From the NCBI GenBank assembly GCA_041611735.1, contig JBFIML010000074.1, positions 1 through 12,280 of the forward strand: a DNA stretch of 12,280 nt, in the 5' to 3' direction. The notes below the pieces were generated by a model, which saw nothing but the letters and a program-made list of their open reading frames with translations, made no database searches and had not been told where the DNA came from. Each line of letters opens with the position of its first letter. Within the stretch, counting starts at the first letter, position 1. Below, piece by piece: positions 1 to 12,280 of the stretch. The position numbers and the translations under genes were made by a program. Source of the DNA: Myxococcota bacterium. Lineage in GTDB: Bacteria; Myxococcota_A; UBA9160; PR03.

Positions 1-602
1 ACGCCCTTGGGGTCTCCCGTGGTTCCCGAGGTGTAGATGATCTGGAGCGGATCGTTCGGGCCCTCGAGGCGCACATCCGGCGTGGGCGCCGGCTCGGCCA
101 GCACGGCACCCAGCGGCTCGACGCCGGGCGTCGGCGCCGGGAAGGCTCCGCCGCGGCCCTCGCGGGTCTCCAGGGACAGGATCCAGCCCAGCTCCGGCGC
201 CTGCCCGTGGATCCGGCCGACCTCCTCCAGACAGTAGTCGGCGCAGACCACGCCCCGGCAGCCGGCGTTCCGCAGCAGGAAGGCCAGCTTGTGGCCGCGG
301 GTGCGCGGGTCGATGGGCACGAAGACGGTTCCCGAGATCGAGGCGGCGATCATCGTCTCCACGAACTCGGGGTGGTTGCGCATCATGAGCCCGAAGCGGT
401 CTCCGCGCTCGAGCCCGCGCGCCACGAGAGCCGCGGCCAGACGGTTGGCGTGGGTCTGGAGGTCGCCGTAGGTACGCACCTCGTCCGGGGTGGCGCCGCC
501 GTCCAGACTCAGGTGCTCGAAGGTGAGGACGTCGAGGTCCGGGTCGCGCTCGGCGCGGGCGGCGACGAGGTCCGCCAGGATCAGATCGTTTCGCTCGCGC
601 AT
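1..602 (-). CDS. AMP-dependent acyl-CoA synthetase/ligase, N-terminal part (runs off the left edge; missing from the ORF track)
   Basis: Manual translation from the ATG at 602 gives MRERNDLILADLVAARAERDPDLDVLTFEH...GLERGDRFGLMMRNHPEFVETMIAASISGTVFVPIDPR...LQIIYTSGTTGDPKG, which contains the canonical AMP-binding P-loop YTSGTTGxPKG. A GGAGGGG RBS lies just upstream. Confidence 0.93.
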   Translation of the reverse strand, partial: MRERNDLILADLVAARAERDPDLDVLTFEHLSLDGGATPDEVRTYGDLQTHANRLAAALVARGLERGDRFGLMMRNHPEFVETMIAASISGTVFVPIDPRTRGHKLAFLLRNAGCRGVVCADYCLEEVGRIHGQAPELGWILSLETREGRGGAFPAPTPGVEPLGAVLAEPAPTPDVRLEGPNDPLQIIYTSGTTGDPKG

Positions 603-630
603 GACCCCTCCGCGGCAGGCGCCGCGTTGT

Positions 631-1863
631 TCACGCCTGGAGTATCGTCACGCACATCGCGGCGGCATCCACCCCGATGTTCCCGCCGCCGTTGTGGGCC
701 AGCGCGAGGCGGGCTCCCTCGACCTGGCGCGGGCCCGAGCGGCCCTGGAGCTGCTCGGTGAGCTCCACGATCTGCGCCAGGCCCGTGGCGCCCACCGGGT
801 GCCCCTTCCGCAGCAGCCCGCCCGAGGGATTGACGGGAATCCGTCCGCCGAGACGCGTGGCCCCCTCGTCGATCAGCTTGCCTCCCTCGCCCTTCGCGCA
901 CAGGGCCAGCGACTCGTAGGCCATCAGCTCGGCGGGGGCGGATGCGTCGTGGCACTCGATCACGTCGAGGTCCGACGCCGAGACCCCCGCCTCCTCGTAG
1001 GCCTCCCGCGCACAGACCTCGACGGTGCCGGGCTCGTCCCAGCCGTGGTCCCAGCCCGAGTGCAGTACGCTCGTCACCACGCGCACGGGCTTGCGCAGGC
1101 CGAGGGCTCTCGCCTTGCGCTCGCTCACCAGGACCGCCGCAGCGGCGCCGTCCCCGATCGGCGAGCACATCGGGCGGGTGAGGGGCTCCGCGATCATGGG
1201 CGCCGCCAGCACTTCCTTCACCGTCAGCTCCTCGCGGAACTGCGCCCGGGGATTCAGGCTTCCGTGGTGGGAGTTCTTGGCGGAGACCCCGGCGAACTGC
1301 TCGATCGTGGTGCCGTAGCGCTGCATGTGGGCCCGGGCGGCGGCGGCGTAGATGTCCATGAACATCGAGCGCTTCTCGCCGGCGCCGGAGGCGCCGGCCG
1401 CCCCACCGCGGGCCTGGGCGCTCTCCTGGAGGCGCGCCAGCAGCTCCTGCAGGGCCTCCACGTCCACGGCTCCACTGAACGCGGCGAAGGACTTGCGTTT
1501 GTCCGGGTGGTGGAGCTTCTCCACGCCCAGCGCGAGCACGACGTCGTGGAGCCCGGCCGACAGCATGGCTGCGGCCTGGTAGAGGGCGGTGGACGCGCTG
1601 GCGCAGGCGTTCTCCACGTTCACCACGGGAATCCGCCCCAGGCCCATCGAGCGCAGGATCACCTGACCCCGGATGCTCTCCTGGCCGGTGACGAGGCCGG
1701 CCGCCGCGTTGCCCACCCAGGCGGCCTCGAGCGCCTGGGGCTCGAGGTTCGCGTCCGCCAGCGCGGCTCGAACCGCCTCGGCGCCGAGGGCCTTGAGCCC
1801 GGTCTCCAGATGCTTGCCGAAGCGGGTCATGCCGACCCCCGCCACGACCGCCTTCATCCGCAT
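631..1863 (-). CDS. Thiolase family protein, SCP2/lipid-transfer type
   Basis: Motifs: GVGMTRFG at the N-terminus, NACAS (nucleophile Cys), VIECHDA, VNPSGGLL, GHPVGATG, and HNGGG in place of the classical C-terminal CxG. GGAGG RBS upstream of the ATG. Confidence 0.93.
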   Translation of the reverse strand: MRMKAVVAGVGMTRFGKHLETGLKALGAEAVRAALADANLEPQALEAAWVGNAAAGLVTGQESIRGQVILRSMGLGRIPVVNVENACASASTALYQAAAMLSAGLHDVVLALGVEKLHHPDKRKSFAAFSGAVDVEALQELLARLQESAQARGGAAGASGAGEKRSMFMDIYAAAARAHMQRYGTTIEQFAGVSAKNSHHGSLNPRAQFREELTVKEVLAAPMIAEPLTRPMCSPIGDGAAAAVLVSERKARALGLRKPVRVVTSVLHSGWDHGWDEPGTVEVCAREAYEEAGVSASDLDVIECHDASAPAELMAYESLALCAKGEGGKLIDEGATRLGGRIPVNPSGGLLRKGHPVGATGLAQIVELTEQLQGRSGPRQVEGARLALAHNGGGNIGVDAAAMCVTILQA

Positions 1864-1887
1864 CGAGGGCGCCTCCGTCCCGGCCGC

Positions 1888-2676
1888 TCAGAGCAGGCCG
1901 TGTCCCTTGATTCCGAGTGCGCTCTTCAGGAACTCGAGCTCCGCCTCGCGCCAGGGCAGGGGGGCCGGATCCTGGAGCATGCCGTCGCGCTCGAGCTCCC
2001 CGACCACCGCCTCCGAACGGGGGAACGGGTCGCCATGACGGTTCATGTGGAAGAGCTGCTCGAAGGGCTGGCGCGGCCGCTGTCCGCCCGCTTCCGGGCT
2101 CTCGGCGGGGTATCCCACCGTCTGCAGCAGCAGCACCCGCGCGCTGTCGGGCAGCCCCAGGTTCTCGCGGATCTTGTCGGTGTTGGGCGTCCCGAGACAG
2201 CAGGTCCCGAGCCCCTGCTCGAAGGCCATCAGGGTGGCCTGTGCGATTCCCTGGCCGCAGTCCACCTCGCCCAGGCCGGGTTCCTTCAGCTTGTCGCGGA
2301 TCGAGTCGAAGATGGGGATCAGCTGCTGTTCGAGGGCCTTCTCCTTGCCCTCCCCGACGCCGAGGGCGCCGGCCCGCAGCAGCTCGCGCAGGCGTTGTGA
2401 CTGCTCGTCCACCGCGGCGGTTTCGATGTACCAGACGATCACCACGGGAGCGAGCCGGATCTGGAAGCCGGCGATCGGCGCCATCAGCGCGTCCAAGGTC
2501 TCCTTGGATGCGCTGTCGCGGAACACCACCACGGCGCGCAGGCTCTGCACGTTGCCCCAGTGCGAGGCGATGCGGGCCGCCTCGAGCATCCGCTGGATCT
2601 TCTCCGGCTCCACCGGCCGGTAGGGCCGCAGGAAGCGGATGGATCGCCTTCGTCCGAGCACCTCGCGCAGTTCCAC
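1888..2676 (-). CDS. Nitroreductase family (FMN-dependent) protein
   Basis: N-terminal RRRSIR FMN-binding motif, D-G-AQATLMA-EQGLGTC helix and GYPAE C-terminal motif. GTG start with an AGGAGG RBS overlapping the upstream stop codon. Confidence 0.9.
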   Translation of the reverse strand: MELREVLGRRRSIRFLRPYRPVEPEKIQRMLEAARIASHWGNVQSLRAVVVFRDSASKETLDALMAPIAGFQIRLAPVVIVWYIETAAVDEQSQRLRELLRAGALGVGEGKEKALEQQLIPIFDSIRDKLKEPGLGEVDCGQGIAQATLMAFEQGLGTCCLGTPNTDKIRENLGLPDSARVLLLQTVGYPAESPEAGGQRPRQPFEQLFHMNRHGDPFPRSEAVVGELERDGMLQDPAPLPWREAELEFLKSALGIKGHGLL

Positions 2677-2689
2677 CGTTCGTACCTCC

Positions 2690-3895
2690 TCAGAGCTTCT
2701 CCGCGGCGACCAGGCTGAGCAGGTCGTTGCAGCCGTCCTCGATCATCGAAGCACGCGCGTCGCGAAGGAGCTTCTCCATGGGATACTCGCGGCTGAGCCC
2801 GTTGCCCCCGAAGATCTGGAGGGCGCCGCTCGCCACGTCGAAGGCGGTCTGGGTGCAGAAGACCTTGGAGGCGATCGAGTACTGCACCAGCGGGGGCGAG
2901 GTGGAGTTGTGGAGCGCCACCCGCCGGGCGAGGGAACGCGCCGCCTCTACCTGGGTGAATGCCCTGAACAGCCGCGCCTTCACGCTCTGGTGCTGGAAGA
3001 TGGAGACGCCGCCCTGGATCCTCTGCTTGGCGTATCCGATCGCGTGCTCGAGGGCGGCGCGGGCCAGCCCGACGAAGATCGTTCCCATGGCGGCGTTGGC
3101 CAGCGCCAGGACCGTCTCCACCACGAGGCCGTAGGCGTCCGGGCCGACCACCATGTACGCCTCGGGGATGCGGACGTCGTCGAAGAAGATCTCGCCCTGG
3201 TTGAGCGCGCGCTGCCCCAGCTTGTCCAGAGGCTTGCCACGCGACACGCCGGGCAGATGGAGCGGAACCACGGCGACGCCGCCCCCCCCGAATCCATGCT
3301 TCGGATCGACGGTGCAGAAGAGCGCCGCCACCGTGGCGATGGTTCCGTTGGAGACCCAGGCGGCCTTCTGGCCGCGGATCACGAAGTGGCTCCCGTCCTT
3401 GCGGGCGACGCAGTTCGGGCGCACGGAGGGATCTCGGAAGTGGGGCTGATCGAAGGCCAGCGAATCGCTGCCATGGTCGGGCTCGGTCACCGCCCAGCAG
3501 CCGATCTCCTCGGCGCCGGCGTCGCAGTAGCGCTCGATCAGCTCCTGACGTCCCGACATGCGGGCGAAGATGCGGTGGAACCCGGAGACGCCCAGACTGA
3601 TGGCGAGCCCCGCATCGCCCCAGCCGAGCTCCTCGCTGACGAGGAAACGCATGCGCGCGTTCTCGGCGGGAGTGCGCTCCCCGGCGGTGGCGTCGAGCGC
3701 GTCGAGACCGAGCTCCCGGTAGCGCTCGAATACGCTCCACAGCACGGAGTCCGGCGCGATCACCGCCTGGGGATCGGCGAGGCGGTCGAGCGCCGCGCCC
3801 GCGGGCCGCATCACCTCCTCGGCGAACTTGTGCGCCAGGTCGCGGACCGCCCGTTCCTCGTCCGTGAGCGACGCCTCGATGTCGACGAGCCCCAT
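2690..3895 (-). CDS. Acyl-CoA dehydrogenase family protein
   Basis: Motifs: EELGWGDAG, WAVTEPDHGSD, GQKAWVSNG, KLGQRA, YAKQRIQGG and QIFGGNGLSREYPMEKLLRDAR. GAGGAGG RBS. Confidence 0.95.
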   Translation of the reverse strand: MGLVDIEASLTDEERAVRDLAHKFAEEVMRPAGAALDRLADPQAVIAPDSVLWSVFERYRELGLDALDATAGERTPAENARMRFLVSEELGWGDAGLAISLGVSGFHRIFARMSGRQELIERYCDAGAEEIGCWAVTEPDHGSDSLAFDQPHFRDPSVRPNCVARKDGSHFVIRGQKAAWVSNGTIATVAALFCTVDPKHGFGGGGVAVVPLHLPGVSRGKPLDKLGQRALNQGEIFFDDVRIPEAYMVVGPDAYGLVVETVLALANAAMGTIFVGLARAALEHAIGYAKQRIQGGVSIFQHQSVKARLFRAFTQVEAARSLARRVALHNSTSPPLVQYSIASKVFCTQTAFDVASGALQIFGGNGLSREYPMEKLLRDARASMIEDGCNDLLSLVAAEKL

Positions 3896-3951
3896 GGCAC
3901 GCCTCCTCGCTCGGACGGGGGTCGACCCTATCCCTTCGGGGCATGCACGGG

Positions 3952-3967
3952 TATGACCCCCGTCATA
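3952..3967. promoter_or_regulatory. Palindromic operator TATGAC-CCCC-GTCATA (CRP/FNR-like), upstream of the acyl-CoA dehydrogenase operon
   Basis: Perfect 6-4-6 inverted repeat. Its centre (3959.5) is 29.5 bp from a TAGGGT -10-like hexamer on the minus strand (3930-3925), which is the class II -41.5 position. Confidence 0.7.
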
Positions 3968-3997
3968 GGCAGGGCACGTGAGCGACCCCGGAGTCGC

Positions 3998-5041
3998 CTA
4001 TCCGCCGCGGGTGTGCATCTCCAAGTGCGGGTCGCGGCGCAGGGCTTTGCGCCCGAAGGGATCCCCTCGCTCCGGATGGCGGAGGCGCTGCTCGGCCCCG
4101 CGGTTGCGGCGCTGCCGCCAGGCTCGGGCGATGCGCTGCTGGAGCTTCGCCCGCGTGGCGCCGTTCCGCAGCGGTCCGCGCAGGTCGGTGCCGCTCCGCG
4201 CGTAGAGACACGGGTAGAGCATGCCGTCGGCAGTGAGGCGCACCCGGTCGCAGGCGCCGCAGAACGGCCGGCTCGTGGAGGCGACGATCCCGAAGCAGGT
4301 CCCGTCCGGCAGGACGAAGCGCTCCGCGGGGCTCGCCTCCGCACCGTTCTTGCCGGGTGCGATGGCCCCGTAGCGCTCGCCGAGCCGGATCAGGATCTCG
4401 GTGCGCGGGACCACGTCGGCCATGGACCAGCGGGTGGCTCCCCCGACGTCCATGTACTCGATGAACCGCACCTCGGCGCCCATCTCGCTGCCGTAGGCCA
4501 GAAGATCGGGCATCTCGTCGTCGTTGACGCCGCGGATCACGACGCAGTTGATCTTGAGCGATCGGAAGCCGGCGCGGGATGCGGCTTCGATTCCCGCCAG
4601 CACCCGTGCCAGGCCGCCCCGCCGCCGGGTCAGGACCTCGAACCGGTCCGCCCGCAGGCTGTCCAGGCTCACGGTGACCCGCTGCAGGCCAGCCGCGACG
4701 AGACCCTGAGCCTGCTCGCCGAGCAGGATCCCGTTGGTGGTGAGCGCCAGGTCCCCGGTCCGCAGCCCGTCGGCGAGAACCCGGATCAGGAGCGGCAGGT
4801 CCCGGCGCACCAGGGGCTCGCCTCCGGTGAGCCGGATCCTCGCCACGCCGAGGCCCACGAAGGCGCCCACCAGCGCGTCGATCTCCTCGAAGCCGAGGAG
4901 GTCCCGGCGCGGGAGCCAGGCGTACTCCCGCTCGGGCATGCAGTATCGGCAGCGCAGGTTGCAGCGGTCGGTGACGGAGATCCGCAAGCTCCGCAGCGGG
5001 CGACCCCGGGCGTCCGTCACGGTCGGGCTTCTCGGTCGCAA
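3998..5041 (-). CDS. moaA: GTP 3',8-cyclase MoaA (radical SAM)
   Basis: LRISVTDRCNLRCRYCMP (CxxxCxxC), RLTGGEP, TTNG, RFIEYM, CGACDRVRLTADG-LYPC (Cx2Cx13C) and a C-terminal GG. The start is placed at the TTG at 5041 (GGAG 6 nt upstream); the GTG at 5020 is an alternative. The track start of 5362 is over-extended. Confidence 0.96.
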   Translation of the reverse strand: MRPRSPTVTDARGRPLRSLRISVTDRCNLRCRYCMPEREYAWLPRRDLLGFEEIDALVGAFVGLGVARIRLTGGEPLVRRDLPLLIRVLADGLRTGDLALTTNGILLGEQAQGLVAAGLQRVTVSLDSLRADRFEVLTRRRGGLARVLAGIEAASRAGFRSLKINCVVIRGVNDDEMPDLLAYGSEMGAEVRFIEYMDVGGATRWSMADVVPRTEILIRLGERYGAIAPGKNGAEASPAERFVLPDGTCFGIVASTSRPFCGACDRVRLTADGMLYPCLYARSGTDLRGPLRNGATRAKLQQRIARAWRQRRNRGAEQRLRHPERGDPFGRKALRRDPHLEMHTRGG

Positions 5042-5116
5042 GCTGCGCTCCAGGACCGGGCTCCCCGCGCGGCGGAATGCCGCCCGGGGATGCTGAAGCA
5101 CCGCGTCGGCGCGGCG

Positions 5117-5132
5117 TATGACCGCCGTCACA
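5117..5132. promoter_or_regulatory. Palindromic operator TATGAC-CGCC-GTCACA (CRP/FNR-like), probably serving moaA
   Basis: Near-perfect copy of the 3952 motif, with a right arm matching the CRP half-site TCACA. Its centre is 29.5 bp from CAGCAT on the minus strand (5095-5090), which keeps the conserved -11A and -7T. Confidence 0.6.
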
Positions 5133-5152
5133 GGCACCCCGCCGGCACCGTC

Positions 5153-5168
5153 TATGACGTCGATCATA
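5153..5168. promoter_or_regulatory. Palindromic operator TATGAC-GTCG-ATCATA (CRP/FNR-like), probably serving the CMD-moaDE operon
   Basis: TATGA-N6-TCATA inverted repeat. Its centre is 30.5 bp upstream of TAAGCA at 5191-5196, a weak -10-like element. Confidence 0.6.
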
Positions 5169-5263
5169 CCGGGGGCCCCGCGCCCCGGGGTAAGCAGGCG
5201 TCGATCGGTGGGGGGTGGGAGGGGCGTTCTCTCGGCGGCTCCGACCCCAGGGAGGGCCATCGA

Positions 5264-5623
5264 TTGAGCCATGAATCCGGGGCGAAGAAGCCGTGCTCCC
5301 AGGAGCTGCCCGGGACGTTCAAGCGCTTCGTCCAGCGCTTTCCCGAGCTGGCGGAAGCCCACGAGGGCGTGGCCCAGGCGGTGGAGAAGCTCGGGCCGCT
5401 CGAATCCAAGGCCTGCCAGCTGATCAAGATCGGCATCTCACTGGGAGCCGGGCTCGAGTCGGCGCTGAAGAGCCACGTGCGTCGCGCCCTGCAGGCGGGC
5501 GCGACGCAGCGCGAGATCGAGCAGGCGATCCTTCTCGGCATGAACACGGCCGGCTTTCCGCGCACGGTCGCCGCCTGGAGCTGGGCGCACGAGCAGTTCG
5601 AGCGCGAAGCCCGGGGGCGCTGA
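5264..5623 (+). CDS. Carboxymuconolactone decarboxylase (CMD)/AhpD-like family protein
   Basis: This is the C-terminal end of the 994-aa track ORF. TTG start with GGAGG 8 nt upstream. The sequence LPGTFKRFVQRFPEL...GPLESKACQLIKIGISLGA...SHVRRALQAGATQREIEQAILL...GFP is typical of the CMD family. Confidence 0.85.
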   Translation: MSHESGAKKPCSQELPGTFKRFVQRFPELAEAHEGVAQAVEKLGPLESKACQLIKIGISLGAGLESALKSHVRRALQAGATQREIEQAILLGMNTAGFPRTVAAWSWAHEQFEREARGR

Positions 5624-5630
5624 GATCCTG

Positions 5631-5879
5631 ATGCGCGTGACGGTGCGCCTGTTCGGATTCGAGGCCGACGCGCTCGGCCAGCGGACCGTGACGATCGAGG
5701 TCCCGGACCAGGAGCTGACCTGCGGCCGCTTGGCGCAGGGGCTGGCCGAAGCGGAGCCGAAGCTGGCGCAGAGGCCCGGCAGCTGTCGCCTCGCGGTCAA
5801 TCACGAGTTTGCCGTGGACGACCGCAGGATCGGGCCCGACGACGAGGTCGCGCTGATCGGGATGGTGAGCGGAGGATGA
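5631..5879 (+). CDS. moaD: Molybdopterin synthase sulfur carrier subunit MoaD (ThiS/MoaD family)
   Basis: 82 aa with VRLF, LAVNHEF and a DEVALIGMVSGG C-terminal di-glycine. Overlaps moaE via ATGA. Confidence 0.9.
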   Translation: MRVTVRLFGFEADALGQRTVTIEVPDQELTCGRLAQGLAEAEPKLAQRPGSCRLAVNHEFAVDDRRIGPDDEVALIGMVSGG

Positions 5880-6292
5880 GCGTCACGGTGCGCATCGTCG
5901 ACGGAGCGCTGGGCCCGGCGGAGGAACCCTGGCGGGTTCCCGGAGCGGGGGCCCTCGTCGAGTTCGAAGGTGTCGTCCGGCCACTCGAGGGAGCGCGTCC
6001 GATCCTCGCCCTGGACTACGAGGTGTACGCGCCCATGGCAGGCCGGCAGCTGCGCCGGATCGCCCAGGCGTTGAAGCGGGAGCTCGGCCTCGTCGCCATC
6101 TGCGTCGAGCACAGCCACGGACGGGTGCCGATCGGCGAGCGTTCGTTCCGGCTCCGGGTGGCGGCGGAGCACCGCCAGCAGGCGCTCGAAGCCGTGGAGC
6201 GCTACGTCGATCTCCTCAAGCGCGACGTCCCGATCTGGAAGAAGCCCGTGCTCGCCGCCGTCGCGGCGGCCAGGGCGGACGCGCCGAACTGA
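5876..6292 (+). CDS. moaE: Molybdopterin synthase catalytic subunit MoaE
   Basis: Motifs: GAGALVEFEGVVR, LDYEVYAPMA, HSHGRVPIGE, AEHR and LKRDVPIWKK. Confidence 0.93.
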   Translation: MSVTVRIVDGALGPAEEPWRVPGAGALVEFEGVVRPLEGARPILALDYEVYAPMAGRQLRRIAQALKRELGLVAICVEHSHGRVPIGERSFRLRVAAEHRQQALEAVERYVDLLKRDVPIWKKPVLAAVAAARADAPN

Positions 6293-6394
6293 GCCGGACC
6301 CTGCGCGGAGAGGTCCTCGACCACGGTCACCGGGATGAGGCGCCCGCCGTCCGCGACGCCGATTGAACGCGCCCCTCCGGAGGTCGATGGCACC

Positions 6395-7651
6395 ATGCCC
6401 GCGTGGCTCGCTCCTGCCGGCGCTTCGGATGCCGCGGGCGGCGAGCCCGATCTTCCGCGCTGCCGCTTCACCCTGAGCGAGTTCTCGGGCGCGCTCGGCG
6501 ACCTGGGCACCTTCCTGCCGCTGGTCCTGGCGATGTCCATCGTATGCGGCATGGAGCTGGGATCGATCCTGGTCCTGGCGGGCCTCGCCTGCGTGGTGAC
6601 GGGGCTCTGGTCGGCTCAGCCGATTCCCGTGCAGCCGATGAAGGCGGTCGCCGCCGTAGCCATCACCGAGCGTCTCGCGGCCGGGGAGATCGCCGCCGCT
6701 GGCCTGATCGTCGGAGCGCTGATGTTGGCGCTGGCCCTCACCGGCTCGGTGGACTGGCTGTGCCGGGCCGTTCCGCGCACCATCGTACGCGGCATCCAGC
6801 TCGGCGTCGGCGTCAAGCTCGTGCTCACAGGTCTCGATTGGCTGATGGGATGGAAGGCCGGTGCCGCGGGTGGGCTGCCGCTCGTCGGCTGGGACAGTTT
6901 GCTGGTGGCCGCGATCGTGGGAGGTCTGCTGCTGCTCCCGGCGCTCGGGCGAATCCCCCTCCTGCTGCTGGTCTTCCTGGGCGGCTTCGGATTGCTCCAC
7001 CTCGCCCACCCGGGGCTCTACGCGCAAGTGACGCTGCGGGTTCCGCGACTCGTGTGGACCTTCCCGAGCGGATCGGAGTGGCTCCCGGGGCTGGTGCACG
7101 GCGCGCTGCCCCAGCTTCCACTGACGCTGCTGAACTCGGTGGTCGCCGTGTGTGCGCTGAGCCAGGACTACTTTCCCGGGCGGGGCATCGCCCCGAAGCC
7201 CACGGCGCTGAGCATCGGACTGATGAACCTGCTCTCGGCCCCCCTCGGCGGAGCTCCCGTGTGCCACGGGGCCGGGGGGCTGGCGGCCCAGTACCGCTTC
7301 GGAGGCCGCACGGGCGGCGGCATGGTCATGATCGGGCTCGTCAAGGTCGCGGCGGGCCTGCTCTTCGGCGCGACGCTGGTGAGCGTGCTCTCCGCCTATC
7401 CCGTCTCGATTCTCGCCGTCATGCTCGTCTTCGCCGGCGTGGCCCTGGGGGCGATCGTGCGGGACGTGCGAGGGAGCGCCGACTGGCTCGTGGTCGGTCT
7501 CACGGCTGTGCTGATCGTGCTGGTGAACACCCTCACGGGCTTCGCGATTGGCGCTCTGGTGGCGGGTCTCCTGGCCGCGCGCAGGCGCCTCCGGCGCCGC
7601 GCCTCCGCTGCCGTGACGGCGCCGGTGCAATGGGAGAGCGGCACGGGCTGA
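6395..7651 (+). CDS. MOT1-family molybdate transporter (putative sulfate/molybdate transporter)
   Basis: Hydrophobic multi-TM protein with MOT1 signatures SGALGDLGTFLP, PVQPMKAVAAVAI, RGIQLGVG, LPQLPLTLLNSVVAV and CHGAGGLAAQYRFGGRTG. The start is uncertain (6335 or 6395; GGAGG at 6379-6383). Confidence 0.88.
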   Translation: MPAWLAPAGASDAAGGEPDLPRCRFTLSEFSGALGDLGTFLPLVLAMSIVCGMELGSILVLAGLACVVTGLWSAQPIPVQPMKAVAAVAITERLAAGEIAAAGLIVGALMLALALTGSVDWLCRAVPRTIVRGIQLGVGVKLVLTGLDWLMGWKAGAAGGLPLVGWDSLLVAAIVGGLLLLPALGRIPLLLLVFLGGFGLLHLAHPGLYAQVTLRVPRLVWTFPSGSEWLPGLVHGALPQLPLTLLNSVVAVCALSQDYFPGRGIAPKPTALSIGLMNLLSAPLGGAPVCHGAGGLAAQYRFGGRTGGGMVMIGLVKVAAGLLFGATLVSVLSAYPVSILAVMLVFAGVALGAIVRDVRGSADWLVVGLTAVLIVLVNTLTGFAIGALVAGLLAARRRLRRRASAAVTAPVQWESGTG

Positions 7652-7891
7652 AGCGGGTTCCGGTCTACTTCCTCTCCGGGGGTCGCAGCTCGCGCTTCGG
7701 CTCCGACAAGGCGCGTGCCCGGATCGGCGGCGATGCGCTGCTGGTGCGGCTCGCCCGGGCGCTGGCACCGGTGGCGGAGGCTCGAAGGGGTCTCCAGCGT
7801 CGCCGTGCGGCTGCCCGCGGGACGCACCCGGCTCTCCCAGGCCAACACCGTGGACGCGCTGGCGGCCTTCGCGGAGGCGAGCCGCCCTTAG
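7630..7891 (+). pseudogene. mobA: Molybdenum cofactor guanylyltransferase MobA-like remnant (internal deletion plus frameshift)
   Basis: The ATG at 7630 gives VYFLSGGRSSRFGSDKARARIGGDALLVRLARALAPVAE, the MobA nucleotide-binding N-terminus. From about 7781 the +1 frame reads LEGVSSVAVRLPAGRTRLSQANTVDALAAF...stop at 7891, resembling the NxNTPxDL C-terminus. The central region is absent. Confidence 0.72.
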
Positions 7892-8079
7892 GCGCCGCAC
7901 GTGCTTGCGCGCCTGCTCCACGTCCGCGAGCGTGGAGGGGATGTCCGGGGTCCAGGCCTCCAGCGCGGGCTTGCGCAGGGCGGCCCCGAGCTGGTTCTCG
8001 CCCAGGAGGAGCGCGATACGCCCGCCCTCCTCGGGTGCGGGGCGGCGGCCCGCGCCGGTCCGGTCCGGTGGCCGCGGCC

Positions 8080-8814
8080 ATGGGCCCGTCTAGCTCCGCC
8101 CGCCAGCGGGCGGGTCCCGTGGCGCTCCTGCGCAGCGTGCTCGCCGTCCTGGCCATCGTCCCGGGCCTCGCGGCCGGGCTCGCCGTCTGGCCGGCCACCC
8201 GCGACCGACGCCGCGCGGTGAACTGCACCTGCGCCGTGTGGGCGCGGCTCGGCCCGGCGGCCGCCGGAATCCGCCTGGCCGTGACCGGTGCGGAGCACCT
8301 GCGCCTGCGACCGGCCGTCTTCCTCTTCAACCACCAGAGCGCCATCGACCCGCTGCTGGTGTGCGCGCTGCTGCGCCACGACTTCCTGGGCGTGGCCAAG
8401 CGGGAGGTGCGCCGCTACCCGCTGGTGGGCCCGGCCTTCGCCTTCGCGGGCAGCGTGTTCCTGGACCGTGCGGACCCCCAGCAGGCGCTGGCGGCCCTGG
8501 GGCCGGCGGTGGAGGCCCTGCGCCGCGGCCTCGCGGTGGCCATCGCGCCCGAGGGCACCCGCAGCCCCGACGCCCGCATCGGCCCCTTCAAGAAGGGCGG
8601 CTTCCGGCTCGCCCTGGCGGCCCGGGTCCCGATCGTGCCCGTGGTGATCCACAACGCCCGGGACGTGCTGCCGCGCGGGGCCTGGCTGCTGCGTCCCGCC
8701 ACGGTGCGGGTGAGCGTGCACGCGCCCCTGGCCACCACGCACTGGACGCTTCCCGGGCTCGAGGACGAGATCGCGGCCATCCGCGACCTCTACGCGCGCA
8801 GCCTCGCGGCGTGA
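8080..8814 (+). CDS. 1-acyl-sn-glycerol-3-phosphate acyltransferase (PlsC/LPLAT family)
   Basis: NHQSAID (HX4D), FLDR, PEGTRS, PFKKGGF and VPIVPVVI motifs, plus an N-terminal hydrophobic helix. The start is uncertain (ATG 8080, no clear RBS). Confidence 0.9.
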   Translation: MGPSSSARQRAGPVALLRSVLAVLAIVPGLAAGLAVWPATRDRRRAVNCTCAVWARLGPAAAGIRLAVTGAEHLRLRPAVFLFNHQSAIDPLLVCALLRHDFLGVAKREVRRYPLVGPAFAFAGSVFLDRADPQQALAALGPAVEALRRGLAVAIAPEGTRSPDARIGPFKKGGFRLALAARVPIVPVVIHNARDVLPRGAWLLRPATVRVSVHAPLATTHWTLPGLEDEIAAIRDLYARSLAA

Positions 8815-8832
8815 CGGGTCCCGACGGCCCTG

Positions 8833-8841
8833 TGGTACGTT
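8833..8841 (+). promoter_or_regulatory. Possible extended -10 promoter (TGnTACGTT) for the carboxylesterase
   Basis: TG-G-TACGTT lies in the 62-bp intergenic gap, about 35 bp before the ATG. This is a pattern match only. Confidence 0.3.
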
Positions 8842-8876
8842 GCGCCGCCCGTCGTTGGCAACGGAGGCGTGGGTCC

Positions 8877-10394
8877 ATGGAGCGGGTGGTCGAGACGGCG
8901 AGCGGCAAGCTGCGCGGCGCGGAGCGCGACGGGATCTTCGTGTTCCGCGGCGTGCCCTATGCCCGACCGCCGCTGGGCGAACGGCGCTTCCGCGCCCCGC
9001 AGCCCCCGGAGCCCTGGCCCGGAGAGCGCGACGCCACCCGCTCGGGAGCCGCGGCGCCCCAGAACCCGCTGGTGACCGCCGTCTTCCCGGACCTGGGCGT
9101 CGGCCGGCAGCAAGAGGACTGCCTCACGCTCAACGTCTGGACCCCGGACACGGGCGGCCCGCCGCGCCCGGTCCTGGTCTGGATCCACGGCGGCGCCTTC
9201 GTGATCGGCTCCGGCGCGCAGCCCATCTACGACGGCGGCGAGCTGGCCCGGCGCGGAAACGTCGTGGTGGTGACGCTCAACTACCGCCTGGGCGCGCTCG
9301 GCTTCCTGCACCTGGCGGAGCACGACGGCGCCTGCTTCGGCGCCGCGTCCAATGCGGGCCTGCTGGACCAGATCATCGCCCTGCGCTGGGTGCGCGAGAA
9401 CGCGGTGGCCTTCGGCGGCGATCCCGAGCAGATCACCGTGTTCGGCGAGTCGGCGGGCGGCATGAGCGTCGGTACGCTGCTCGGTACGCCGGAAGCGCGC
9501 GGGCTGTTCCGGCGCGCCGTCGCCCAGAGCGGGGCCTGCCAGGCGATCCACACCCGGGAGAGCGCGGCGCACGTGGCGGACGCCCTGCTCCAGGAGCTTG
9601 CCCTCGGTCAGAACGAGGCGGCCAAGCTGCGCGAGGTGCCCGTGGCGGCGCTGCTCGCGGCGCAGGCGCGCGTGCTGGCCCGGCTCGGACCCCGGGCGAA
9701 CCTGCTCACCTTCCAGCCCGTGGTGGACGGCCGCACGCTCCCGCGCCATCCCCTCGAGGCGGTGGCGGACGGAGCGGCCCCGGAGGTGGCGCTCCTGGCC
9801 GGCACGACCCGCGACGAGTGGCGCCTGTTCGGGCTGCTGGACTCGAAGGCCCGGGGCCTCGACGAGGCGGGTCTCGTGGCCCGGGTGGAGCGGCGCGTCC
9901 CGGGGGCCGACGCCCGCCGCCTGCTGGCGCTGTACCGGGAGGAGCGTGCCGCCGGCGATCGCAGCGATCCGGCCTCGCTGCTCTTCGCCCTGGAGACGGA
10001 CCGCGTGTTCCGCATCCCGGCCCTGCGTCTGGCCGAGGCCCAACTCGCCCAGGGAGCTCCCACCTGGGTCTACCGCTTCGATTGGGAGGTGGCGGCCCTG
10101 GGCGGCGTGCTCGGCGCCTGCCACGCGGTGGAGCTTCCCTTCGTGTTCGGGACCCTCGGGCTGAAGGGCATCGGGCCGCTGCTGGGCGACGGGCCCGAGG
10201 CGCGCCGTCTCGCCGGGCGGACCATGGACGCCTGGCTCGCCTTCGCGCATACCGGCGAGCCGGGTCACGAGGCGCTCCCCGCCTGGCCGCGCTACGACCT
10301 GGAGCGCCGCGCCACGCTTCTGTTCGGCCCGGAGTGCCGCTGCGCCGACGACCCGGGTGGCGCGCTGCGGCGCGCCTGGGACGCAATCCGCTAG
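8877..10394 (+). CDS. Type-B carboxylesterase/lipase (para-nitrobenzyl esterase-like)
   Basis: Motifs: FRGVPYA-PP-G-RF, EDCLTLNVWTP, WIHGGAF (oxyanion hole), NYRLG, FGESAGG (Ser), GTTRDE (Glu) and GACHAVELPFVFG (His). ATG at 8877 with a GGAGG RBS. No signal peptide. Confidence 0.95.
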   Translation: MERVVETASGKLRGAERDGIFVFRGVPYARPPLGERRFRAPQPPEPWPGERDATRSGAAAPQNPLVTAVFPDLGVGRQQEDCLTLNVWTPDTGGPPRPVLVWIHGGAFVIGSGAQPIYDGGELARRGNVVVVTLNYRLGALGFLHLAEHDGACFGAASNAGLLDQIIALRWVRENAVAFGGDPEQITVFGESAGGMSVGTLLGTPEARGLFRRAVAQSGACQAIHTRESAAHVADALLQELALGQNEAAKLREVPVAALLAAQARVLARLGPRANLLTFQPVVDGRTLPRHPLEAVADGAAPEVALLAGTTRDEWRLFGLLDSKARGLDEAGLVARVERRVPGADARRLLALYREERAAGDRSDPASLLFALETDRVFRIPALRLAEAQLAQGAPTWVYRFDWEVAALGGVLGACHAVELPFVFGTLGLKGIGPLLGDGPEARRLAGRTMDAWLAFAHTGEPGHEALPAWPRYDLERRATLLFGPECRCADDPGGALRRAWDAIR

Positions 10395-11680
10395 GCCGCA
10401 GGCGGGGGTCCGCTCGTGGCGTCTTCCTGCGACTCCGGCTCGAGCAGCTCGGGGCTCCGCAGGGGGCGCGGCGTCGCCGCGGCGGTTCGCGTCTCGGGGA
10501 TCTCGCTGCTCCCGCCGGCGCCGAGCTCCCGGAAGCGCCGCGCCGAGGCCAGCACGCGCAGCTCCAGGGAGCCGACCGCGCGGTTGTAGGAGTCCACGGC
10601 TCCCTCCAGGCTGCGGCGCAGGCGCTCGAAGTGGCCCGCCACGCCGGCCAGGCGGTCGTGCAGGGTGCGGCCCAGCTCGCTGATCTCCTGGGCGTTGCGG
10701 GCGATCTGCTCCTGCTTCCAGCCGTAGGCGACGGCGCGCAGCAGGGCGATCAGCGTGGTGGGGCTGGCCGGGATCACCTTCTGGTCCACGCCCCAGTCGA
10801 TCAGCGCCGGATCGTGCTGCAAGGCGGCCTGGAAGAAGGTCTCTCCGGGCAGGAACATCACCACGAACTCCGGAGTGGGCTCGAACTGGCTCCAGTAGCT
10901 CCGGCTTCCCAGCCGCGTCATGTGCTCACGCACCTGGCGGGCATGATCGCGCAGGCGCGCCGTCCGCTCCTCCTCGTCGGTCGCCTCGAGGGCGAGCAGG
11001 TAGGCCTCGAGGGGTGCCTTGGCGTCCACCACCACGTTCTTTGCGCCGGGCAGGCGCACCACCAGGTCCGGCCGCAGGCGTCCGCCCTCGCTCGTCTGCT
11101 GCTCGTGGAAGTCGCAGTGGTCGAGCATGCCCGCCATCTCCACCACCCGTCGCAGCTGGATCTCGCCCCAGCGGCCGCGCACCGAGGGGGCCCGCAGCGC
11201 CTGGACCAGGTTGCGGGTCTCGCTCTGGAGCTTCTCGTGCGAGGTGGCCACGGAGCGCAGCTGCTCGGTCAGTGCGCCGTAGTGCGCGTGACGCTCCTTC
11301 TCCACCTCGCGCAGCTTCTCGTCCACCCGGTGCAGGGACTCGTGAAAGGGCTTGAGCAGGGCGTCGATGGCCTCGCGGCGGCTGTCCAGGTCGTCGGAAG
11401 CGTGACGTTGGAACTCGCCGAGCGAGGTCCGGGCCAGCTGCAGGAAGGACTCGCTGTTGCGGTGCAACGCCTCGTGGGAGAGGCTCTGGAACGCCTGCCG
11501 CAGCTGACCCTCGGCCTGCTCGAGCAGCGTGAGCTTCTCGCGCGTCGCGCGGCGCTCGTGGCGCAGCAGCCACGCGAAGCCCACCCCCGCGAGCATCCCG
11601 CCCAGGGCGAAGCCGAGCAGGAAGGGCAGCAGCGGGAGCAGCTGCTCCAGGAGCGGCCCCACCGGTTCGAGCTCTTGCAT
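10391..11680 (-). CDS. rmuC: DNA recombination protein RmuC
   Basis: N-terminal TM helix and coiled coil, then RGRWGEIQLRRVVEMAGM, RPDLVVRLPG--VVVDAK, PEFVVMFLPGE and SPTTLIALLRAVAYGWKQE. ATG at 11680 with GAGGGGGG upstream. Confidence 0.94.
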   Translation of the reverse strand: MQELEPVGPLLEQLLPLLPFLLGFALGGMLAGVGFAWLLRHERRATREKLTLLEQAEGQLRQAFQSLSHEALHRNSESFLQLARTSLGEFQRHASDDLDSRREAIDALLKPFHESLHRVDEKLREVEKERHAHYGALTEQLRSVATSHEKLQSETRNLVQALRAPSVRGRWGEIQLRRVVEMAGMLDHCDFHEQQTSEGGRLRPDLVVRLPGAKNVVVDAKAPLEAYLLALEATDEEERTARLRDHARQVREHMTRLGSRSYWSQFEPTPEFVVMFLPGETFFQAALQHDPALIDWGVDQKVIPASPTTLIALLRAVAYGWKQEQIARNAQEISELGRTLHDRLAGVAGHFERLRRSLEGAVDSYNRAVGSLELRVLASARRFRELGAGGSSEIPETRTAAATPRPLRSPELLEPESQEDATSGPPPAA

Positions 11681-11812
11681 GACCCCCCTCGCTCTCGAGT
11701 GTGGCCCAGCGGGCCGCCTCCGACCAGAGCGGGCGTTGCGCGGCTCCCCCGCTTCGGCGAGCCTCCCGACCGGCCGCCCCCTCGGGCGGCACCGGGCCAC
11801 GGAGCGGGGTGC

Positions 11813-12106
11813 ATGACGGAAGCGGAGCAGCGCCGGGAGCGGCTGCGGGAGACCCTGGCGGAGCTCGAGGCGGAGCTCGCGGCGAGCGGATCGCTCGACC
11901 GCGAGCTCCGCGCCCGCCTGGAGAGCACGGTGGCGGACCTCCGCGTGACCCTGGAGCGCGCCGAGGGCGACGCGCCGGACGACGAGGACCACCATTCGGT
12001 GGTGGACCATTTGAGCGACGCCATGCGTCGCTTCGAGGTGACGCATCCCAAGCTTTCGCTGGCCCTGGGCCGGGTGGTGGACGCCCTCAGCAACCTCGGC
12101 ATCTAG
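11813..12106 (+). CDS. DUF4404-like small helical protein
   Basis: 97 aa, LRETLAELEAEL...FEVTHPKLSLALGRVVDALSNLGI, matching the characteristic FE--HP-L and LS-(L/M)GI end of this family. GGAG upstream of the ATG. Confidence 0.8.
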   Translation: MTEAEQRRERLRETLAELEAELAASGSLDRELRARLESTVADLRVTLERAEGDAPDDEDHHSVVDHLSDAMRRFEVTHPKLSLALGRVVDALSNLGI

Positions 12107-12172
12107 CTTGTGGTTCGAAGATTGCGCCTGGGGGGGTGGCGGCCGGGGCCCGATCCGGGGGGATGGCTCGGG

Positions 12173-12280
12173 CTAGCGGGCGTAGACGGCCCGGTGGATG
12201 GGGCCGCGGGGCAGGCAGCGGGTGGGGATGCGGCGCTCGTAGCACTGCCGCAGCCAGCCCGACAGCCGCACCCGGGACGG
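12173..12280 (-). CDS. 3' end of an unidentified CDS entering from the right edge
   Basis: Open frame PSRVRLSGWLRQCYERRIPTRCLPRGPIHRAVYAR-stop, with every codon ending in G or C. Confidence 0.55.
   Translation of the reverse strand, partial: PSRVRLSGWLRQCYERRIPTRCLPRGPIHRAVYAR

Follow-up and report, generated by a model that had tools for sequence, protein, structure and literature searches.

A palindrome shared by three intergenic sites at a molybdenum cofactor and acyl-CoA locus of a Myxococcota bacterium

A palindrome repeated between genes

The window analysed here, a stretch of 12,280 nucleotides from a Myxococcota bacterium (assembly GCA_041611735.1, contig JBFIML010000074.1, positions 1 to 12,280, forward strand), carries genes for molybdenum cofactor (Moco) biosynthesis next to an operon for acyl-CoA metabolism headed by an acyl-CoA dehydrogenase (ACAD). 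We found that a 16-base palindrome, TATGACNNNNGTCATA, recurs at three intergenic positions, upstream of the ACAD operon, of moaA and of a unit that begins with a gene for a CMD-family protein and includes moaD and moaE. The sites, which have no strand of their own, are as follows.

3952..3967, site 1: 57-72 bases upstream of the ACAD start codon (3895) and 31 bases downstream of the moaA stop (3998)
5117..5132, site 2: 76-91 bases upstream of the moaA TTG at 5041
5153..5168, site 3: 96-111 bases upstream of the CMD TTG at 5264

Site 1 (TATGACCCCCGTCATA, 3952-3967) is a perfect palindrome, TATGAC-CCCC-GTCATA, without mismatch to TATGACNNNNGTCATA, and site 2 (TATGACCGCCGTCACA, 5117-5132) and site 3 (TATGACGTCGATCATA, 5153-5168) each carry one mismatch, in a right arm that reads GTCACA and ATCATA, respectively. 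When up to two mismatches were allowed, TATGACNNNNGTCATA matched three times in the window against 0.01 expected, and none of 200 dinucleotide-preserving shuffles reached three or more matches. A search of the window at three mismatches returned no site beyond the same three, and the hexamer TATGAC occurs three times on the forward strand of the whole window, every time within one of the sites. For the looser core TGA-N6-TCA, four matches were found in the window where 0.88 are expected (4 of 200 shuffles reach four), and three of the four are the palindromes. The three-site motif is real and lies far above chance. An earlier reading of the DNA from its letters alone (the sequence-only reading) had placed 16-mers at these positions; its coordinates are exact, chance is excluded by the counts above, and the intergenic location that it gave for all three was borne out under the gene calls made here.

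The arms are constant across the three sites while the four-base centres differ (CCCC, CGCC and GTCG). Conserved AT-rich arms around a free centre point to recognition by a protein rather than to an RNA stem. When oriented by gene, the sites have a wider and slightly asymmetric pattern in common, C-T(A/G)TGACG..G(G/A)TCATAC; sites 1 and 2 are alike at 19 of 21 bases (90% identity, site 1 stretch 3951-3971), and the site 1 region forms with site 3 a 26-base inverted pair that is 77% complementary. Five of the six half-sites read TATGA ((T)ATGAC) and one reads TGTGAC, so that the right half of site 2 is TCACA, the canonical CRP half-site. The G+C content of the sites is 44-56%, compared with 72.8% for the whole window, and the 100-base windows around them range from 69 to 78% G+C, with no AT-rich intergenic island. 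Thus, the AT-richness noted in the sequence-only reading holds for the palindrome arms but not for their surroundings.

The genes around the sites

The genes were called from Pfam and NCBIfam matches and from open reading frames (ORFs), as given with each entry.

3-602, reverse strand: AMP-forming acyl-CoA ligase, continuing past the window end (Pfam, NCBIfam, ORFs)
631-1863, reverse strand: SCP-x/lipid-transfer-type thiolase (Pfam, NCBIfam, ORFs)
1888-2676, reverse strand: nitroreductase-family protein (Pfam, NCBIfam, ORFs)
2690-3895, reverse strand: acyl-CoA dehydrogenase, ACAD (Pfam, NCBIfam, ORFs)
3998-5041, reverse strand: moaA, GTP 3',8-cyclase, with its stop at 3998 (Pfam, NCBIfam)
5264-5623, forward strand: CMD-family protein, TTG start following GGGAGGG, divergent from moaA (Pfam, NCBIfam)
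5631-5879, forward strand: moaD (Pfam, NCBIfam)
5876-6292, forward strand: moaE (Pfam, NCBIfam)
6335-7651, forward strand: MOT1-family (PF16983) molybdate transporter (Pfam, NCBIfam)

The ACAD-nitroreductase-thiolase-ligase operon (3..3895, reverse strand) is tightly packed, with gaps of 13-28 bases. On the forward strand, CMD, moaD, moaE and MOT1 (5264..7651) are probably a single transcription unit because the gaps between them are at most 42 bases. The transporter at 6335-7651 lies within this probable unit, where modABC would be the usual bacterial molybdate uptake system. Translation of moaA may start at TTG 5041, which has a GGAG six bases before it, or at GTG 5020, which is aligned to position 1-2 of the TIGR02666 profile, and MoaA homologues align from residues 3-10 onward. 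Site 1 occupies the 102-base moaA-ACAD spacer, and sites 2 and 3 both fall within the 222-base divergent region between moaA and CMD, with their centres 36 bases apart.

Promoter geometry and the candidate regulator

What acts at the palindromes? They are very probably the operators of one dimeric regulator that is encoded outside the window. A single dimeric helix-turn-helix protein would bind all three, each half-site (consensus TATGAC) being read by one subunit and the four-base centre being free to vary. If this protein is of the CRP/FNR type, it would sit at about -41.5 of three promoters without a -35 element, recruit RNA polymerase by class II activation and, perhaps in response to oxygen, redox state, molybdate or a pathway intermediate, co-activate moaA, the CMD-moaD-moaE-MOT1 unit and the ACAD-nitroreductase-thiolase-acyl-CoA ligase operon. 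We offer this fuller picture, a CRP/FNR-family class II activator that co-induces Moco synthesis, molybdate uptake and the acyl-CoA operon, as a tentative proposal, quite possible if short of probable.

The sites stand at a fixed spacing from -10-like hexamers that face the three units. From the site centres (3959.5, 5124.5 and 5160.5) to the first base of the hexamer we measured 29.5 bases at site 1, 29.5 at site 2 and 30.5 at site 3, so the distances of 29.5-30.5 bp to TAGGGT, CAGCAT and TAAGCA given in the sequence-only reading are correct.

3925..3930, reverse strand: TAGGGT, candidate -10 of the ACAD operon; class II geometry would put the start near 3918
5090..5095, reverse strand: CAGCAT, weak candidate -10 of moaA (3/6 against TATAAT); implied start near 5083
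5191..5196, forward strand: TAAGCA, very weak candidate -10 of the CMD-moaDE unit (2/6 against TATAAT); implied start 5202-5203

Class II activators of the CRP/FNR family are centred at -41.5. When offsets from -40 to +70 gene-ward were scanned (about 110 offsets), the top summed match to TATAAT outside the motif fell at 28.5-29.5, and the summed hexamer score of 8 was reached by only 0.45% of random triples of window positions (P = 0.0045). Because both the offset scan and the hexamer scores favour the class II position, this spacing is probably more than a post-hoc coincidence, though two of the three promoters supply most of the signal. The form TAnnnT, which TAGGGT has, is found at only 0.05% of window positions. 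A scan of 3800-5400 for the sigma-70 -35/-10 consensus yielded no promoter-like site, which fits activator-dependent promoters.

The CRP/FNR family is a plausible assignment for the regulator, and our best single guess, because of the layout of the sites, their near-identity to described boxes, their geometry and the precedent at other moa genes. At all three sites, the CRP/FNR operator layout TGA-N6-TCA lies within TATGAC-N4-GTCATA. Excerpts of two papers describe the closest boxes: the HcpR1 box is wyTTGACnnnnGTCAArw in delta-proteobacteria and TTGACnnnnGTCAA in two cyanobacteria (Rodionov et al., PMC1274295), and the Anr box is TTGac-N4-gtCAA (PMC4974557). Like the HcpR1, DNR and Anr boxes (TTGAC-N4-GTCAA), the window sites are 5-N4-5 inverted repeats with a TGAC...GTCA core upstream of the genes concerned (excerpt of PMC1274295), and they differ by one base per half-site, the first base of the pentamer being A and not T. 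HcpR1 is described, in that excerpt, in delta-proteobacteria (PMC1274295), the group that is also named for the nearest ACAD relatives. In contrast, the targets here are Moco synthesis and acyl-CoA metabolism instead of hcp or denitrification genes, and no regulator gene adjoins the window sites.

Read in the CRP frame, the motif becomes TATGA-N6-TCATA, with A at position 3 where CRP boxes have G and FNR-type boxes have T. Its 16-base frame is identical to that of the CRP boxes (TGTGA-N6-TCACA), the 21 bases that window sites have in common come near the 22-base CRP site, and the -10 spacing fits -41.5; however, a single half-site in six (site 2, right) is exactly TCACA, and the other five carry A in place of the G that is contacted by CRP Arg180 (PMC1274295, in excerpt). 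According to the same excerpt, half-site position 3 (G in CRP, T in FNR) varies with one residue of the recognition helix, R180 in CRP (PMC1274295), and the half-site consensus sequences of the CRP/FNR subfamilies are TGTGA, TTGAT, TTGAC, TTGCG and GTAAC (PMC1274295). Five of the six half-sites in the window match none of these.

The precedent comes from gamma-proteobacterial moa genes, again as excerpts of the papers present it. The S2 promoter of E. coli moa is FNR-dependent (PMC2408646), and candidate Fnr sites are marked before moaABCDE in most genomes of a gamma-proteobacterial survey (PMC1805755). In E. coli, a global activator of the CRP/FNR family raises Moco synthesis together with dependent pathways (PMC2408646), and the same would hold here if the proposed activator exists. 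E. coli moa adds ModE and a Moco riboswitch to this control, whereas in the window the riboswitch was not detected and a ModE gene was not seen. The moa genes of the window are also split into divergent units, and the motif extends to a non-respiratory acyl-CoA operon.

Several observations weigh against a CRP/FNR activator. Pfam and NCBIfam scans of 13 window proteins found no CRP/FNR or other transcription-factor domain. The half-site is non-canonical, being TATGA in five of six cases and not TGTGA or TTTGA, and a literature search found no paper with ATGAC-N4-GTCAT, ATGA-N6-TCAT or TATGACNNNNGTCATA; a search on the fatty-acid regulators LiuR, FadP and PsrA gave nothing usable. As for the promoters, the hexamer offset had been picked after inspection of the sequence, the TAnnnT form is present in one of the three hexamers only, CAGCAT and TAAGCA are poor -10 candidates, and the strongest -10-like hexamers of all three regions are the palindrome arms themselves. 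Palindromes of 16 bases with such a layout are also typical of the TetR, MarR, Rrf2 and ArsR families, and the layout by itself would suit TetR, MarR, Rrf2, ArsR or ModE-like proteins as well. The sequence-only reading had proposed one CRP/FNR activator for the three units in class II geometry. Of this proposal, the common motif, the TGA-N6-TCA layout and the favoured offset (top of the scan outside the motif, with the P value above) stand, while the unusual half-site, the lack of a regulator domain in the 13 proteins and the restriction of the TAnnnT form to TAGGGT count against it.

We compared the locus with other genomes through a MoaA-query search of genome contigs, which gave 80 moaA loci at 35-72% identity (about 739 kb) from other lineages; neither the source species nor any near relative of it is represented, and the loci include no orthologous promoters. 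The motif at one mismatch or fewer occurs in none of the 80 loci, an absence that is also to be set against the proposed activator but that, for non-orthologous promoters, is uninformative on conservation. At two mismatches, five matches were obtained in the 739 kb (L033, L059, L060, L066 and L076), about the chance level, and the L033 match, the sole one of the five inspected, falls within an ORF of 454 residues and was dismissed as a chance hit. Nor did the regions before moaA in these loci show an excess of TGA-N6-TCA (0.25 per kb versus 0.26 per kb overall). The best MoaA loci come from Thermoanaerobaculia and other Acidobacteriota, Gemmatimonadales and Planctomycetota metagenome-assembled genomes (MAGs). 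ACAD adjoins moaA in none of the 80 and CMD-moaD-moaE in one, L078 of a Phycisphaeraceae MAG, where no similar palindrome was seen when the upstream regions were read by eye. Many ACAD homologues were found at 75-81% identity, the nearest being named from Deltaproteobacteria, Myxococcota, Binatia and similar MAGs.

Other readings and wider meaning

The palindrome arms open the way to a serious rival, which we judge possible but on balance doubtful: a repressor from a different helix-turn-helix family (TetR, MarR, Rrf2, ArsR or a ModE-like molybdate sensor) could occupy the same operators. Each site would then overlap the promoter -10, which would be the palindrome arm itself, and block RNA polymerase until a ligand (acyl-CoA, Moco/molybdate or a redox signal) removes the repressor and releases the genes. 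As expected of an operator that overlaps its promoter, TATAAT is matched best by the arms in each of the three regions: TATGAC scores 4/6 at 3967 (reverse strand) and at 5117 and 5153 (forward strand), and TATGAT scores 5/6 at 5168 (reverse strand), in a window where hexamers scoring at least 4 make up 0.16% of positions and those scoring 5 round to 0. If TATGAT at 5168 were the -10 of moaA, site 2 would fall downstream of the start and become a second operator. No activator gene is found among the 13 scanned window proteins, and acyl-CoA operons are commonly controlled by TetR- or GntR-type repressors. A loose similarity also exists to the motif of NsrR, a protein of the Rrf2 family, which an excerpt of PMC1274295 gives as ATGyAT-N5-ATrCAT. 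However, no arm has a usable -35 hexamer 16-19 bases upstream (the best matches to TTGACA are 1-3/6), and at 73% G+C any AT-rich motif will pass for a -10. It would also be less usual for Moco synthesis and an acyl-CoA operon to answer to one local pathway repressor than to a global regulator. As regards ModE, its box has another spacing than the window palindromes, and its gene was not seen in the Pfam and NCBIfam scans of the window proteins.

The palindromes could instead act in RNA, as short hairpins, placed in 5' leaders or the moaA-ACAD spacer, with an effect on stability, termination or translation; we consider this very unlikely. Each palindrome is able to form a hairpin of 5-6 base pairs, and the middle 10 bases of site 1 (3955-3964) have a perfect complement at 3909-3918, directly before the ACAD ribosome-binding site; this pairing could matter if moaA and ACAD are co-transcribed. 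The moaA-ACAD spacer (105 bases folded) reaches -53.6 kcal/mol (z = -2.79, none of 200 shuffles as stable), and the site 2 region folds at z = -3.27. In contrast, sites 1 and 3 fold locally no better than shuffled sequence (z = +0.22, 107 of 200 shuffles as stable, and z = +0.54, 142 of 200, respectively), the long-range pairing exists at site 1 only, stems built from AT-rich arms are weak where the genome is G+C-rich, and the arms are conserved in sequence and do not covary. The Moco riboswitch (RF01055) was not found by cmscan of the whole window at E-values up to 1; the search gave two unrelated matches, both below the gathering score, and thus no Rfam family at gathering. A terminator scan of 3800-5400 found no terminator-like site.

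Three further inverted repeats lie close to the sites. Site 2 is contained in a longer, G+C-rich and imperfect inverted repeat at 5105-5144 (GGCG..GGTG / CGCC..CGCC; -24.6 kcal/mol, z = -3.27). A hairpin of 7 base pairs at 3981-3998, beginning on the final base of the moaA stop, lacks a T-run and was not called as a terminator. Around the moaA stop codon and site 1, positions 3930-3940 and 4052-4062 form an 11-base perfect inverted repeat (ATCCCTTCGGG / CCCGAAGGGAT), of which about two pairs are expected by chance in the region by a rough estimate.

It is hardly credible that the palindrome is no more than a short dispersed repeat, present in three copies and with no role in regulation (a mobile or REP-like, that is repetitive extragenic palindromic, relic, or recombination sites around moaA): site 1 and sites 2 and 3 do flank precisely the moaA gene, and the closest MoaA relatives among the fetched loci (Acidobacteriota, Thermoanaerobaculia) differ from those of ACAD and CMD-MoaDE, but this taxonomic contrast comes from non-comparable searches, the similarity ends at 21 bases (sites 1 and 2) and at 26 bases with 77% (sites 1 and 3) with no longer repeat unit, no transposase or integrase domain is present among the 13 scanned window proteins, and the spacing to downstream genes and -10-like hexamers is regular.

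The preferred reading, operators of one CRP/FNR-type activator, builds on a principle that is well established: palindromic operators common to several promoters and FNR-type control of moa genes are both familiar, and a specialist is unlikely to be surprised by them. Novelty may lie in the variant half-site and in the linking of Moco genes to an ACAD-nitroreductase-thiolase-ligase operon. A bolder version, which we regard as unlikely, would see here a new CRP/FNR-like branch in an uncultured high-G+C lineage that reads TATGA-N6-TCATA and couples Moco synthesis and MOT1-type uptake to the ACAD-nitroreductase-thiolase-ligase operon; the acyl-CoA pathway would then depend on a molybdoenzyme step, as in the anaerobic breakdown of aromatics, steroids or hydrocarbons. 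If the activator is confirmed, the motif would serve as a position weight matrix for regulon mapping in this uncultured, very G+C-rich lineage and would add one more half-site variant to the co-variation of recognition helix and box in the CRP/FNR family. It would also tie the ACAD-nitroreductase-thiolase operon to molybdenum-cofactor supply, hinting at molybdoenzyme-dependent catabolism.

Among the 80 moaA loci, only that of an Acidobacteriota MAG (L024) is conspicuous for such boxes: it has two GTGA-N6-TCAC boxes 307 and 285 bases before the moaA match, 22 bases apart, where only 13 such boxes occur in all 739 kb. The boxes, TGTGAGTGCTATCAC and TGTGACGGCCGTCAC (L024 4693-4729), lie in the intergenic DNA from which moaA and an ORF with a CxxCH motif (cytochrome c-like by eye) diverge, and the second, TGTGACGGCCGTCACG, resembles site 2 on the reverse strand. 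This hints that CRP-like boxes before moaA may occur elsewhere, with no evidence of orthology to the sites described here.

Two minor observations concern the Moco genes themselves. The CMD-moaD-moaE order recurs in L078 (5982-7084) with 64%, 52% and 52% identity, and because of this recurrence the small CMD/AhpD-like protein may be regarded as a candidate accessory of molybdopterin synthase. At 7630-8814, the stretch GGRSSRFGSDKA resembles the N-terminus of MobA (Pfam NTP_transf_3, matched only at profile positions 3-39 of 160) and continues in frame, through an Arg/Pro/Gly-rich sequence, into a PlsC-type acyltransferase, which suggests a frameshifted or truncated mobA.

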